Shown one piece after another: positions 1 to 9,602 of a stretch of DNA of 37,551 nt. Source of the DNA: a virus (lineage: Duplodnaviria > Heunggongvirae > Uroviricota > Caudoviricetes); the IMG/VR virus record IMGVR_UViG_2778261670_000003; one strand, 5' to 3'. Under the pieces are notes generated by a model. It saw only the letters and a program-made list of their open reading frames with translations, did not search any database and was not told the DNA's origin. The position numbers and the translations under genes are program-made. Every line of letters starts with the position of its first letter. The first letter of the stretch is position 1.

Positions 1-1053
1 TTACGGGGTAATGCCAACCGCTGCCGCCACTTTGTCGCCATTTGGCAGCGTTGCCAGAGGATTGAAGCGGAGCGCCGTTTCCAGATGATCCGGTGCCAGA
101 TGTGCGTAACGCATAGTCATTTTTATATCGTGGTGTCCGAGAATTTTTTGTAAGGCCAGAATGTTTCCACCCGACATCATGAAGTGCGCCGCAAACGTAT
201 GGCGCAGAACGTGTGTGAGTTGACCGCGAGGGAGCACGATAGACGTTTTTTCCATCACGGATAAAAATTGAAAATAGCAGTCTGTGAAGAAATTGAACCC
301 ATCAAGCGCCATAATCTCTTCGTAAAGCTCTTTACTGATAGGGATACTTCTGTTTTTCTTCCCCTTCGTTCTTACAAAGGTAATTCGGTATTTGGTCACC
401 TGTGAACGAGTAAGATTTACGGCTTCTCGCCAGCGTGCGCCTGTGCTTAAGCATATCTTAACTACCAGTGCCAGAATTGGGTCCTGACGTTTGCAATCAG
501 CCAGTAATTCAACAATCTGCTCATGGGTAAGCCATGCCATCTCTTTTTCTGAGATGGTGAATTTTCGCATGTTCTCCAGTGGGTTCGGATACGACCATTC
601 GCCCAGACGGGATAGTTCGCTAAAAACACTACTTAGATAGCTTTGCTCCAGGTTAATGGTGACCGGGCTTGCTCCTTTCTTCCATTTCTCGCTGAAGTAG
701 ATCTCGCCTGTCAGGCGTTTATCTCGATAGTGGGCAAACATTTTAGAGGTGAGATCGGTTGCAAGGGGATTGCCCAGAGCGTCAACCATCAACAGCAATT
801 TGTCATAGACATGCTGCCCAGCGGTTAGAGATTTACCATGTAGTTTGAACCATAGCTCAACCACGTCTTTCAGTGTTCGACGATCCACTGATTCTCCCAG
901 CCAGGGCTTTGCTTCGGTTTCTTCCATCGTATGGCGCTCAAAAGCCAGAGCTTCGCCTTTGGTGGCGAATTGTTTACGCACACGACGCCCACTACGTCCG
1001 GCGGGGTAACATTCGCAAAGCCATTTTCCTGTGGTGAGTTTTCGTACTGCCAT
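1..1053 (-). CDS. int: Tyrosine integrase (P2/186 Int family)
   Basis: 350-aa product starting MAVRKLTTGKW with C-terminal catalytic region (HVLRHTFA...MTMRYAHL). GAGGG SD 8 nt upstream of ATG at 1053. The ORF track extends to 1068, but that upstream ATG is part of the SD. Stop codon at 1-3. Confidence 0.9.
   Translation of the reverse strand: MAVRKLTTGKWLCECYPAGRSGRRVRKQFATKGEALAFERHTMEETEAKPWLGESVDRRTLKDVVELWFKLHGKSLTAGQHVYDKLLLMVDALGNPLATDLTSKMFAHYRDKRLTGEIYFSEKWKKGASPVTINLEQSYLSSVFSELSRLGEWSYPNPLENMRKFTISEKEMAWLTHEQIVELLADCKRQDPILALVVKICLSTGARWREAVNLTRSQVTKYRITFVRTKGKKNRSIPISKELYEEIMALDGFNFFTDCYFQFLSVMEKTSIVLPRGQLTHVLRHTFAAHFMMSGGNILALQKILGHHDIKMTMRYAHLAPDHLETALRFNPLATLPNGDKVAAAVGITP
19..41. 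repeat. Putative attL core (cgctgccgccaCtttgtcgccat), overlapping the 3' end of int
   Basis: Seen directly: 22 of 23 nt identical to 34697-34719. Lies inside the last codons of the integrase ORF. Confidence 0.5.
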
Positions 1054-1078
1054 AAAAAATGCCCTCATGTCAGAGGGC
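1054..1078 (-). terminator. Hairpin (GCCCTC-6nt-GAGGGC) followed by T-run on the minus strand, downstream of the cargo operon and overlapping the int RBS
   Basis: Stem 1061-1066 / 1073-1078, loop 1067-1072. Minus-strand continuation reads ATTTTTT (1054-1060). Confidence 0.4.
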
Positions 1079-1134
1079 TAAATTTAACTGTATGTTTGAC
1101 CAGTGGTCAATGTATGGTTTGTGAAATCCATACA

Positions 1135-1656
1135 TTACCTTAATTTATCAAGCTCTCGTTTATTTCTTTTATCATGTATATCATTAAGAAATAATATATT
1201 ACTAGCAATGATACTAAATAACGCTATTATTTGTAGATATACTAATAACGCTGTGATAAAAAATCCAAACTTGCAGAACACGTGCTTATGCAAGGAAATG
1301 AAATCCAGATTTGAAAATATAGGTTTCGTTAAATTTATTATAACAATAGAAAATATTACAATAGCTGAAATTATAATGGTTTTCACTATCAGCGTAATTC
1401 GCTCAATATCTTTTTCTGTTTCCTTATGATAGTTTATACTAGTTATTGTTGATGGCTTTACAATTGAACTTACAGCTGCAGGGTAAATATATGCAAGCCA
1501 AATACCTGCAATAGTGAAGATCATTGCAGAAATGTTTTGCAAGGTAGATAAAATATCTTTTATATCTGCATACGTATATTTGTCTCCGAACAAATAAGCA
1601 ATAGCTATAATTGTTAGGAGAAAACATATGTGCAAAATTTTAGGTTTTATAATCAT
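1135..1656 (-). CDS. Small integral membrane protein (about 4 predicted TM helices), unknown function; second gene of AT-rich cargo cassette
   Basis: Four long hydrophobic stretches in the translation. AGGTG SD 6 nt upstream of ATG at 1656. An alternative GTG start at 1665 overlaps the upstream gene. AT-rich relative to phage backbone. Confidence 0.7.
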   Translation of the reverse strand: MIIKPKILHICFLLTIIAIAYLFGDKYTYADIKDILSTLQNISAMIFTIAGIWLAYIYPAAVSSIVKPSTITSINYHKETEKDIERITLIVKTIIISAIVIFSIVIINLTKPIFSNLDFISLHKHVFCKFGFFITALLVYLQIIALFSIIASNILFLNDIHDKRNKRELDKLR

Positions 1657-1657
1657 A

Positions 1658-2860
1658 CTATGCACCTATTTTATGAATCTGCACTGCTGTATCATTATCA
1701 GCTTCTGGTTGTTCTATTATATCTTCATTTTTAAAACAATTCACCAAATCATTTCTATGAGCTTTTACTACACTCATTAAATATGAAGAAGAGTAATGTT
1801 TGTTTCTGTTAGAAAGGTCAACGTGAATTTCATGGCGATAAACATATTCATCTAACCAAGTAGTTGAACCATTTTTTCCATTTATTTTGAATCCGATGCG
1901 TGCGTGATCATTCCCTACATTCTCATTGTTGTTTTCTGTATCTTCTGAAATAGGATTGTGGTTTTCTATATATTCATCGATGAGTTTAGTGAACTCTTCA
2001 GGCGTAGGCGTTCCTTCGACTAATAATTCAACGCGATGTTTTTTTGATAAAATAGGAGAGCTTCTTGAGAAAACATCTCCAACTGCATCAAATAACTTCT
2101 GCCATTTTTCCCGTGTATCAGGTATGTTTGTTTCTATTACGTCATGGTAAACAATGTGAGTGATTTTTTTACACAGTTCTTCTATGTTTGCTCCACTCGT
2201 GATCATCCTTGTTTGTTTAGTCTGTACTTTAAAAACTAAACTTTCATCATCACCTTGAGAAAAAAGAACACGTTTGTAATGAACGTCTTCAGGTGAGTCA
2301 TTACGAGGACGAGTCATATCTATGACTTTTTTATTAGGATGCTCCATCCTAAAGTCAACGTATGCTTTAATATAATGACAGAAAAGATCTGTATCCGTAT
2401 TAGAACTTGGGAATCGTATGGATGCAATTTTGTTATATTCTGGAATTACCCAATAGTAGCAAGGTACGCCCCAGATATATTTACCGCCACCTTGAGTATC
2501 AGAGGCGGATACAACATTATCTGAAGTGCCGTCAATCTTACTTTCAGCATCTATACCTTGAATATTTCCAGAGTTATCACCAAGCGTTTTCCAGATAACA
2601 AATAGATAATCTCCTGTCGTACTGTCATATGAAATATTTTTACAGTATGCTTTTGTTCTTCTATTATTATCCTTTCCCCATGGAACAGATTGTTCAACTG
2701 TTCTTGAACAGATCCAGCTATGTAAGTTACACAGAACATGGGATAAGTTCTTTTCGACTAATTCCGGCGATTTACCTTGTCGTATTTTATAAAGGCCAAA
2801 CATTTCTAAATCAAAAAATGTTATAATGCCGCGTTCAGTTTTAAAGTTGGTTTTACTCAT
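1658..2860 (-). CDS. Hypothetical 400-aa soluble protein, unknown function; first gene of AT-rich cargo cassette
   Basis: Long uninterrupted ORF with ATG at 2860. No motif I can assign to a known family. AT-rich. Immediately followed by the membrane protein gene. Confidence 0.75.
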   Translation of the reverse strand: MSKTNFKTERGIITFFDLEMFGLYKIRQGKSPELVEKNLSHVLCNLHSWICSRTVEQSVPWGKDNNRRTKAYCKNISYDSTTGDYLFVIWKTLGDNSGNIQGIDAESKIDGTSDNVVSASDTQGGGKYIWGVPCYYWVIPEYNKIASIRFPSSNTDTDLFCHYIKAYVDFRMEHPNKKVIDMTRPRNDSPEDVHYKRVLFSQGDDESLVFKVQTKQTRMITSGANIEELCKKITHIVYHDVIETNIPDTREKWQKLFDAVGDVFSRSSPILSKKHRVELLVEGTPTPEEFTKLIDEYIENHNPISEDTENNNENVGNDHARIGFKINGKNGSTTWLDEYVYRHEIHVDLSNRNKHYSSSYLMSVVKAHRNDLVNCFKNEDIIEQPEADNDTAVQIHKIGA

Positions 2861-4201: not shown

Positions 4202-4711
4202 ATGTTTGATTACCAAGTTTCCAAACATCCACATTTTGACGAAGCCTGTCGTGCATTCGCACTGCGCCACAACCTGGTGCAACTGGCAGAACGTGCAGGC
4301 ATGAATGTACAGATTCTGCGGAACAAGCTGAACCCAGCTCAACCTCATTTATTAACCGCACCAGAAATCTGGTTGCTTACCGATCTGACTGAAGATTCAA
4401 CGCTGGTAGATGGCTTTCTGGCACAGATTCACTGCCTGCCATGTGTACCGATTAATGAGGTGGCAAAAGAGAAACTGCCGCATTACGTCATGAGTGCAAC
4501 CGCAGAGATCGGGCGTGTTGCTGCAGGTGCGGTATCTGGCGATGTAAAAACCAGTGCAGGCCGTCGTGATGCGATCAGCAGCATTAACTCTGTTACACGA
4601 CTGATGGCGCTGGCCGCTGTTTCATTGCAGGCCCGTTTACAGGCTAATCCTGCGATGGCGAGTGCAGTTGATACAGTGACTGGCCTCGGTGCTTCATTCG
4701 GTTTGCTGTGA
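4202..4711 (+). CDS. cII: Phage regulatory protein CII-like (186 CII family)
   Basis: 169-aa product directly after apl/cox, as in 186-type phages. Confidence 0.7.
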
Positions 4712-5525: not shown

Positions 5526-5752
5526 TGGCTGATGCAATGGATCTCGTACAGCAGCGAGTTGAAGAAGAACGCCAACGTCATATCCGTGCTGCCCGTGCCA
5601 AAACGCCGGGCGTGTCCCGCGTGCTTTGCGTTGAGTGCGAAGCGCCAATTCCGCCAGCACGCCGTCGTGCCATTCCGGGTGTGCAGCTTTGCATTACCTG
5701 TCAGGAAATCGCAGAGCTGAAAGGCAAACATTACAACGGAGGTGCTGTATGA
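5525..5752 (+). CDS. TraR/DksA-family C4 zinc-finger protein
   Basis: CVECEAPIP…CITCQ four-cysteine motif in a 75-aa protein. Common in P2-like early regions. Confidence 0.75.
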   Translation: MADAMDLVQQRVEEERQRHIRAARAKTPGVSRVLCVECEAPIPPARRRAIPGVQLCITCQEIAELKGKHYNGGAV

Positions 5753-6606
5753 GCACCATCCTGAAATGGGCGGGAAATAAAACCGCCATAATGTCCGAAC
5801 TGAAAAAGCATCTTCCTGCTGGCCCGCGACTGGTTGAACCTTTCGCGGGATCCTGTGCAGTGATGATGGAGACGGATTACCCTAGCTATCTTGTTGCGGA
5901 TATTAATCCTGATTTAATCAACCTCTATAAAAAGGTTGCTGCTGATTGTGAGGCGTTTATATCTCGTGCCAGAGCTTTATTTGAGGAAGCAAACAGGGAG
6001 GTGGCTTATTACAACATAAGGCAGGAGTTTAATTACTCCACTGAAATTACTGATTTCATGAAAGCGGTATATTTTCTGTATCTCAATCGTCATGGTTACC
6101 GTGGGTTATGTCGCTATAACAAGAGCGGGTATTTCAACATTCCCTACGGTAATTATAAAAATCCGTATTTCCCTGAAAAAGAAATTCGCGCATTTGCAGA
6201 GAAAGCCCAGCGAGCAACGTTTATCTGCGCCAGCTTTGATGAAACGCTGGCGATGCTGCAGGTGGGGGATGTGGTGTATTGCGATCCGCCTTATGACGGT
6301 ACGTTTTCCGGTTATCACACTGACGGCTTCACTGAAGATGACCAGTATCACCTGGCATCTGTTCTTGAATATCGATCATCAGAAGGTCATCCAGTCATTG
6401 TTTCTAACAGTGACACATCCCTGATCCGTTCGCTGTATCGAAATTTCACTCACCACTACATCAAGGCAAAACGCAGCATCGGCGTGTCGGCTGGCGAGAG
6501 TAAATCTGCAACAGAAATCATTGCTGTTTCCGGAGCGCGCTGCTGGGTGGGATTTGATCCTTCGTGTGGCGTGGATAGTTCTGCTGTGTACGAGGTGCGC
6601 GTATGA
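5749..6606 (+). CDS. dam: DNA adenine methyltransferase (Dam family, N6-adenine)
   Basis: N-terminal LKWAGNK, FAGS motif and catalytic DPPY motif. ATG at 5749 overlaps the previous stop (ATGA). The ORF track start at 5635 is an out-of-context N-terminal extension. Confidence 0.9.
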
Positions 6607-9109: not shown

Positions 9110-9129
9110 TACTGTAAATATAAACAGTG
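9110..9129. promoter_or_regulatory. LexA (SOS) box TACTGTAAATATAAACAGTG
   Basis: CTGT-N8-ACAG with an AT-rich spacer, about 40 nt upstream of the 9170 ORF. A second degenerate half-site follows at about 9127-9146. Confidence 0.6.
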
Positions 9130-9169
9130 GTTATGTATACAGTATTGTTTTGGTGTCATAGGAGGAAAG

Positions 9170-9358
9170 ATGCAGGACTATTTTTTGGAGTCTTTGAAGC
9201 TCCAGCGCATTGATTTTTTTCTTAAGCTTGTAGCGGCTAGTGAGTGTAGTGATGAAGAGAAGGGGCTGGCTCTGCAGTGGGTTTCTGAATTGACTGATGA
9301 ACTCATGGCAAAAATCAGAAGCCACGAATACAACCGCTCAATGGATGTCATCAGCTGA
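9170..9358 (+). CDS. Small hypothetical protein, first ORF of SOS-controlled module (Tum-like N-terminal part?)
   Basis: Strong GGAGG SD at 9161-9165, ATG at 9170; 62 aa. Confidence 0.5.
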   Translation: MQDYFLESLKLQRIDFFLKLVAASECSDEEKGLALQWVSELTDELMAKIRSHEYNRSMDVIS

Positions 9359-9368
9359 GGTGACTTTT

Positions 9369-9602
9369 ATGCGCATTGAAATAATGATCGATAAAGAGCA
9401 GAAGATTAGCCAGTCTACCCTGGACGCCCTTGAATCCGAGCTTTACCGCAATCTGCGCCCCCTGTATCCCAAAACGGTAATTCGCATTCGCAAAGGTAGC
9501 TCTAACGGTGTGGAACTAACCGGACTGCAACTGGATGAAGAAAGAAAACAAGTGATGAAAATTATGCAGAAGGTGTGGGAGGACGACAGCTGGCTGCATT
9601 AA
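9369..9602 (+). CDS. dinI: DinI-family protein (186 Tum-like C-terminal antirepressor domain)
   Basis: 77-aa product MRIEIMIDKEQ…, similar in length and pattern to E. coli DinI (MRIEVTIAK…). GAGGTG SD upstream. LexA box upstream. Confidence 0.8.
   Translation: MRIEIMIDKEQKISQSTLDALESELYRNLRPLYPKTVIRIRKGSSNGVELTGLQLDEERKQVMKIMQKVWEDDSWLH

Follow-up and report, generated by a model that had tools for sequence, protein, structure and literature searches.

Outside transcripts that read into IS10 are kept from producing transposase by fold-back inhibition: in the read-through RNA an upstream arm pairs with the ribosome-binding site, while transcripts from the element's own promoter start inside or after that arm, rendering an mRNA that can be translated. 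This protection of IS10/Tn10 from external promoters is reportedly the subject of work by Davis, Simons and Kleckner (Cell, 1985; PMID 2416461, cited in PMC13181058). Phage lambda limits the read-through expression of int in another way, by sib retroregulation at the 3′-end of the gene, not by a 5′ hairpin complementary to the Shine-Dalgarno (SD) sequence. In lambda, CII activates integrase expression (PMC7708051), and the promoters of integron integrase genes are LexA-controlled (Guerin et al. 2009; PMC3108266; PMC3323433). The locus described below, which precedes the int gene of an Escherichia coli prophage, resembles each of these systems in some respect.

The window analysed (the whole stretch of DNA studied, 37,551 nt) is a 186/P2-type E. 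coli prophage, 100% identical to NZ_LR778148 over 4.2 kb; the positions of its relevant features are collected in Table 1. A first-pass annotation had proposed that a cargo insertion separates int from the repressor operon, and 1.9 kb of cargo do lie between int and cI with its promoters. In PADLOC this cargo (1135..2860) was assigned to PDC-M18, a candidate defence system, with both of its components represented; it rendered no Pfam match, and is AT-rich (30–37% GC, as against 45–50% in the flanks). The integrase-primase interval of P2-like phages is recorded as holding 8% of their defence systems (2026 survey, PMC13586616). The window's cargo was found at this site in only 12 complete E. coli genomes; the same flanks with other cargo were found in more than 1100. 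The cI product has two tandem Phage_CI_repr helix-turn-helix domains and one C-terminal domain, and is longer than that of 186 (192 aa); similarly long cI genes are present in the 4LV2017, CFT073 and GPEC60 prophages, and the duplicated DNA-binding domain may alter operator recognition. Beyond cI, on the opposite strand, come cII and the remainder of the switch. Elsewhere in the window, an ORF at 5635..6606 (+) contains a DPPY motif and reads, by eye from its translation, like a Dam-type N6-adenine DNA methyltransferase.

Table 1. Features of the int region and of related control elements in the window
Feature	Position	Strand	Remarks
int, tyrosine integrase, 350 aa (MAVRKLTTGKW...)	1..1053	-	ATG 1053..1051, stop 1..3; Pfam Int_N and Phage_integrase
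A + U6 tract between stem and ATG	1054..1060	-	A1060, TTTTTT 1059..1054; terminator tail and SD-ATG spacer
Stem-loop GCCCTC/TGACAT/GAGGGC	1061..1078	-	5′ arm 1078..1073, anti-SD; loop 1072..1067; 3′ arm 1066..1061, contains SD GAGG
Predicted -10 hexamer TTAAAT	1082..1087	-	alternative frame TAAATT, 1086..1081
Predicted LexA (SOS) box CACTGGTCAAACATACAGTT	1086..1105	-	CTG-N10-CAG; about -30..-11, in the -35/-10 spacer
Predicted -35 hexamer TTGACC	1105..1110	-	TTGACC, TTGACA or TTTACA in relatives
Inverted repeat ATGTATG-N12-CATACAT, CII-type operator	1110..1135	-	begins on the final base of the cargo stop codon
Cargo gene B, 176 aa, membrane-like	1135..1665	-	PADLOC PDC-M18B, E 5e-24; GC ~30%
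Cargo gene A, 400 aa	1658..2860	-	PADLOC PDC-M18A, E 2e-36
cI repressor, 293 aa	2941..3822	-	two CI HTH domains; heads the operon upstream of the hairpin
CII operator at the pE of the window, ATGTTTG-N13-CAAACAT	4202..4228	-	overlaps the cII start
cII	4202..4711	+	cognate CII gene
Tandem predicted LexA boxes	9110..9144	+	PWM 24.1 and 15.7; upstream of tum-like ORFs 9170..9602

The terminator-like structure that the first-pass annotation had placed at 1054–1078 corresponds exactly, in its coordinates, to a stem-loop plus U-run. On the minus strand the leader reads TTAAATTTA-GCCCTC-TGACAT-GAGGGC-ATTTTTT-ATG, with a stem of 6 bp (five of them G-C) and a loop of 6 nt; the element sits 57 nt past the cargo stop codon and 0 nt from the int ATG. 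The 25-mer folded with an energy of −12.9 kcal/mol (z = −4.83), a stability equalled by none of 200 dinucleotide shuffles, and in a consensus scan the hairpin ranked first among the terminator-like sites of the first 4.4 kb. It has the anatomy of a Rho-independent terminator, a stable GC-rich stem-loop with a U-rich tract directly after it. The same annotation had also taken the 3′ arm of the stem to be the int SD, which agrees with the present analysis: the arm contains GAGG(G) 8–9 nt before the ATG and no other SD-like sequence lies at a usable distance, making this the sole plausible int SD. The start codon itself is the MAVRK ATG, as in the RefSeq annotation of homologous int genes. An in-frame ATG at 1068, within the loop, was considered as the start of int or of a leader peptide and discarded, since relatives with other types of hairpin do not share it. 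A scan of positions 800–1400 against Rfam rendered a single match, to RyhB (22 bits, the gathering score being 55; E 0.11), which was dismissed as a chance terminator-like resemblance.

To place the hairpin in context, 77 loci with relatives of the window integrase (48–99% identity) were taken from species-representative genomes. The window and 37 of these 77 loci, which belong to many enterobacterial genera, share one order of elements in the 90 nt upstream of the ATG: ATGTWTG-N12/13-CAWACAT, a -35 hexamer, CTG-N10-CAG, T(T/A)AAAT, the SD hairpin and the ATG. The 111-nt region that holds this cassette matches 1121 of the 5426 complete E. coli genomes, including derivatives of BL21(DE3) and CFT073. 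Phages and prophages with different cargo share homology with the window from about position 1136, at the cargo stop codon (or from 1115 in some), and this homology continues through the hairpin into int. The cargo carried elsewhere includes an ATPase (Klebsiella phage KP12), an AAA ATPase with a DUF4276 protein (E. coli GPEC60), other hypothetical genes (EC16, CFT073, 4LV2017) and an ORF of 63 aa resembling YdcA (BL21). By this boundary of homology, the hairpin is part of a conserved int-proximal cassette and not of the cargo.

The distribution of the cassette follows the genomic context of int. All 16 loci in which cI abuts int (gap of 5–28 nt, as in 186) lack it, while every locus bearing it has either a cI-int gap of 410–3307 nt occupied by cargo or no match to cI or cII in the 4 kb upstream. 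Six loci with a cI-int gap of 559–2110 nt (L040, L043–L046 and L048) have no cassette, so the cassette is not the sole solution to such a gap, and two cassette loci (L030 and L049) have no hairpin. Thirteen cassette loci, from Rahnella, Ewingella, Pantoea, Pectobacterium and relatives, have no cI or cII within 4 kb upstream; gpD-ogr was confirmed upstream of int in two of them (L038 and L034), and no cII was found within the 9 kb fetched for the loci with this ogr context. In those two (Rahnella and Pantoea prophages; L038, 3300..4010; L034, 2790..4010) the int cassette lies downstream of gpD-ogr and a canonical terminator, at the end of the prophage map opposite to that of cI. Since the cassette precedes int behind gpD-ogr as well, cassette and int together appear to form a relocatable unit. 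In BL21 Star(DE3) (L084, 1939..4576) and CFT073 (L085, 1586..4614) the cassette is found at the rcdA-ybjJ locus; in the BL21 prophage a deletion fuses cII with a replication gene (both annotated as pseudogenes), and cI, the short YdcA-like ORF, the cassette and int are retained.

The pairing of the two arms was examined across these loci. In a MAFFT alignment of 22 leaders the arms of the different clades fell out of register, which rendered a column-wise count of covariation meaningless; leaders were instead folded one by one, and cognate arm halves were compared with chimeric ones in a permutation test. Of 32 distinct leaders, 28 had z < −2, with a median z of −5.0, and the SD bases were paired in 35 of the 38 leaders (read-through fold; at least two bases of the 4-nt SD-like motif). 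The arms came in some 12 sequence versions, all pairing with the SD, which is always contained in the 3′ arm: GCCCTC/GAGGGC, GCTCTCC/GGAGGGC, AAACTCTCCTAA/TTAGGAGAGTTT, GTAGCCC/GGGCTAC, ACCCCCTT/AAGGGGGT, CACATTCTC/GGAGGATGTG, CCTCCATT/AATGGAGG and ACAGTCCTC/GGGGGCTGT, among others. For the 12 hairpin types, cognate halves folded with −12.3 kcal/mol as compared with −6.0 kcal/mol for the chimeras, and none of 20,000 permutations reached the cognate mean. By these tests the hairpin is under selection and, since the arms vary while complementarity to the SD stays, the selected feature would be the pairing with the SD and not a sequence bound by a protein. This bears on the idea that the palindrome works as DNA, as an operator to which Int, Apl, Cox or some other protein binds at the promoter or start. 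Its overlap with the predicted transcription start is a common position for an operator. However, the stems differ between loci whose Int proteins are 99% identical (the window as compared with L007 and BL21), and the 3′ arm is always SD-like while the 5′ arm merely complements it; an operator function of this kind is accordingly held to be very improbable. In a second hairpin type (L007, L014, L018, BL21 and CFT073), the A-run of the -10 hexamer (TAAAAAT) is complementary to the U-run that follows the stem, which extends the helix to 13–14 bp and makes it symmetric, like a bidirectional terminator.

The U-run, in contrast to the SD hairpin, is restricted to the window's clade (Int at least 77% identical), occurring in 19 of the 38 cassette sequences, with U5–U8 in the relatives. 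In that clade no other terminator was detected within 400 nt upstream, except for a weak match in L011. In 11 of the 13 loci that have no cI before int, a strong canonical terminator stands just ahead of the CII-type repeat and the U-run is absent. Hairpins that cover the SD but lack the U-run are found in Yersinia, Serratia, Kluyvera, Brenneria, Rahnella, Ewingella and Pantoea; in the loci of the first four genera that have the order cI-cargo-int, the SD hairpin is present alone, with no terminator. As far as predicted terminators go, these are distributed in a complementary way, the U-run being present where nothing else ends upstream transcription. It could be argued that the element is simply the Rho-independent terminator of the cI-cargo operon and that the inclusion of the SD is incidental, given its canonical anatomy, its location shortly after the cargo stop codon and the lack of any other terminator there. 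Such an account seems improbable, since the SD hairpin persists at the same place in clades devoid of the U-run, sits behind a separate terminator in the members with an ogr context (Rahnella, Ewingella, Pantoea), and always contains the SD in a 3′ arm that co-varies with the 5′ arm.

The region between the cargo and the hairpin contains a predicted promoter. The spacer between its -35 and -10 hexamers is of the canonical 17 nt; in every clade T(T/A)AAAT is accompanied, at a distance of 17 ± 1 nt, by TTGAC(C/A) or TTTACA, and the relatives reach TTGACA-16-TATAAA. The first-pass annotation, which had suggested that int expression is coupled to that of the cargo, had named an independent int promoter at 1079–1134 as the observation that would speak against its suggestion; a predicted promoter does lie there, conserved in 38 sequences.

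The promoter spacer is occupied by a predicted LexA box. A position weight matrix (PWM) built from 22 known LexA sites of E. coli gave this box a score of 18.0, known sites scoring 12.8–27.5 and the 99th percentile of the background (random 153-nt windows) being 10.3. The boxes of the relatives scored 15–27; that of the window, with CTGG instead of CTGT, is mid-range. Loci without the cassette scored less than 8. In the cassettes the box was always 47–54 nt before the ATG, its CAG being invariant (38/38 sequences) and its CTG nearly so (37/38), while the inner bases drift. Apart from this box, LexA matches were found at a single place in the 37.5-kb window, as a tandem pair near 9110. These two boxes overlap, and precede ORFs 9170..9358 and 9297..9602 (+), the second of which has a DinI-like end. 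The tum gene of 186-like phages is LexA-controlled (PMC12055606), and the boxes and ORFs of the window correspond to the p95/tum antirepressor unit of phage 186, which is under LexA control; the tandem boxes mark this phage as one wired to the SOS response.

The upstream edge of the promoter is formed by a CII-type inverted repeat. Repeats of this type occur only twice in the window, at pE and before int, and each half-site of the int repeat differs from the annotated 186 CII site (ATGTTTG-N13-CAAACAT) by one change at a W position. As in CII promoters of the 186 type, the proximal half-site ends at about -35; the distance from it to the -10 hexamer is 22 nt at int, 21 nt in the pE of 186 and 22 nt in that of the window. 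The spacing between half-sites is 13 nt at every pE, but 12 nt at int and in most relatives (13 nt in some), so that the 13-nt spacing characteristic of 186-type CII promoters (20 bp centre to centre) is not found at the int gene of the window. The proximal half-site is kept in the relatives, while the distal one is degenerate in some loci. This repeat (1110–1135) was also considered as an RNA hairpin that might terminate the cargo transcript. That possibility was rejected because conservation is limited to the outer half-sites of 7 bp, the sequence between them varying freely, because there is no U-run, and because the half-sites are those of a CII operator.

Two independent geometries place the predicted transcription start (+1) at about 1075, inside the 5′ arm of the hairpin: counting 7 nt from the -10 hexamer, and aligning the CII half-site that ends at -35 with that of the annotated 186 pE. 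Whatever the clade, the end of the 5′ arm lies 13–16 nt past the CAG of the LexA box, which corresponds to the predicted +1 to +4. If the RNA begins at the predicted start, the stability of the leader drops from about −13 kcal/mol to between about −2 and −6 kcal/mol; for the window, the RNA from 1075 has no significant structure (z −1.2), while from 1079 the stem still forms. A start of int transcription at about 1075, within the 5′ arm, is therefore what these geometries predict, although the candidate start bases at 1076–1073 are all pyrimidines, which counts against a start at 1075. In RNA without the 5′ arm, the U6 run (1054..1060) can pair with the A-rich int codons 9–11 (1018..1027, minus strand; AGGAAAAUGG), a structure that is not significant (z −1.2) and may be fortuitous.

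An alternative -10 hexamer, TACAGT, lies within the LexA box and would direct initiation at A1079 or G1078, with the whole hairpin included in the transcript. The hairpin would then be part of int's own mRNA, acting as an attenuator or brake that keeps Int levels low; the brake might be relieved by some factor, or the hairpin might stabilise the 5′-end. In favour of this reading, the conservation of TACAGT equals that of the LexA box, a purine lies at the distance from it that is best for initiation, the stem still forms with a start at 1079, hairpins that occlude the SD are common at 5′-ends, and the expression of P2 Int is regulated post-transcriptionally. Nevertheless, TACAGT has no -35 partner, unlike the T(T/A)AAAT present in every clade, and the geometry of the 186 pE also gives +1 at 1075. 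A terminator 25 nt into the transcript would moreover abort most int mRNA, and the dependence of the U-run on the upstream context fits insulation from outside transcription better. For these reasons it is considered rather unlikely that int attenuates its own mRNA in this way.

The explanation preferred here, to which a little more than even confidence is given, is that the hairpin insulates int from read-through of the operon that contains cI and the defence genes, while int is driven by its own promoter with a start within the 5′ arm. Transcripts from pL or pE would run through cI and the defence cargo and would contain both arms; in this read-through RNA the stem would form and hide the int SD and, in the window's clade, the stem and U6 would also terminate transcription just before the int ATG. 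With the SD hidden and the transcript ended, the lysogenic and defence operon, which is transcribed constitutively, would yield no Int, although termination may be partial, given that the stem is short (6 bp) and that an A separates it from the U-run. The int gene would instead be transcribed from its own sigma-70 promoter, whose spacer is the LexA box and whose upstream edge is the repeat of the 186-CII type. As the start would lie at about 1075, within the 5′ arm, this mRNA would lack the anti-SD arm and have a free SD and a short leader. Repression by LexA and help from CII, both predicted, would make Int available at the establishment of lysogeny, when CII is high, or upon SOS induction and excision, when LexA is cleaved. 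Promoter activity, the binding of LexA and CII, the start site and the efficiency of termination are all predicted here from sequence. Counting against this model are the mid-range score of the LexA box, the 12-nt spacing and the partly degenerate distal half-site of the CII-type repeat, the two cassette loci that have no hairpin and the six loci with a cI-int gap but no cassette. A further point against it is that LexA, sitting in the int spacer, might keep CII from activating the promoter in a cell that is newly infected and uninduced.

The opposite arrangement, derived from the suggestion of the first-pass annotation, is that int lacks a promoter of its own and relies on cI-cargo transcripts that read through the hairpin or melt it, which would couple Int synthesis to transcription of the cargo. 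The proposal has some foundation, since int follows cI on the same strand at a distance of 1.9 kb and no other terminator intervenes, a 6-bp stem may terminate only partially, and in phage 186 int is co-transcribed and translationally coupled with cI. It does not fit well, however, with the canonically spaced predicted promoter that is conserved, together with its LexA box and CII-type operator, in the stretch from the cargo to the hairpin in 38 sequences, nor with the presence of the same cassette before int genes that lie behind gpD-ogr and a strong canonical terminator, far from any cI operon. In addition, the hairpin is common to phages with unrelated cargo, and the loci that do rely on cI-int coupling are those without the cassette. 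With a predicted promoter of its own, a cassette that also occurs behind ogr and a hairpin that lies outside the cargo, the evidence points to uncoupling rather than coupling, and the coupled arrangement is judged improbable.

A broader interpretation, advanced tentatively and with somewhat less than even confidence, is that the cassette works as a compact logic gate for the integrase, (CII OR SOS) AND NOT read-through. The autonomy so gained would free int from cI, open the cI-int junction as a hotspot for defence cargo and let int relocate behind ogr, and would place int directly in the LexA regulon of about one-fifth of complete E. coli genomes, BL21(DE3) and CFT073 among them. If this were true, the cassette would represent a second and widespread solution beside the textbook picture of 186, in which int rides on the cI transcript, and would account for the insertion of defence genes between cI and int with integration and excision still under control. 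Int would be absent from stable lysogens, appearing only on induction or infection, and a prophage integrase would join the LexA regulon in many E. coli and Klebsiella strains. From an engineering standpoint, the cassette would be a 90-bp module able to insulate a gene from upstream transcription and yet leave it inducible.

A search of the open-access literature rendered no published description of the int cassette, and no report of a LexA- or CII-controlled int promoter, or of such box sequences, in P2/186-like phages. Every component of the cassette is nevertheless of a known kind. Neither P2 nor 186 served as a direct model: in P2 the spacer between C and int contains an SD (GGAGGG) with neither a comparable hairpin nor a comparable promoter, and in 186 cI overlaps int, which is also why 186 has no such CII site before int. 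With the pE operator of 186 (NC_001317) the int repeat shares the 7-bp inverted half-sites ATGTWTG...CAWACAT, the proximal one ending at about -35; it differs in its spacing (12 nt instead of 13) and in its position before int, the 186 pE serving cI. The likeness to the pI promoter of lambda, a separate int promoter that answers to an establishment activator, is one of design; the CII proteins and their operators are unrelated. Integron integrases offer a further parallel, with an SOS box within the promoter of a tyrosine-recombinase gene, although here the LexA box is combined with a CII-type operator and a putative insulating hairpin. As for the hairpin, it resembles a Rho-independent terminator in its GC-rich 6-bp stem, its 6-nt loop, its A+U6 tail and its position after the last gene of an operon, but it holds the SD of the next gene and its homologues elsewhere have no U-run. 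The logic proposed for the int cassette is that of the fold-back inhibition of IS10/Tn10 and IS50, where the gene of a recombinase is likewise guarded against transcription from outside; as in those elements, the ribosome-binding site of int is predicted by folding to be paired with an upstream complementary segment in transcripts that come from outside. The differences with IS10 are that the protected gene is not that of a transposase but that of a phage tyrosine integrase, that in the window's clade the stem would also serve as a Rho-independent terminator, that the promoter carries putative LexA and CII-type operators, and that the start within the arm is in this case a predicted one.
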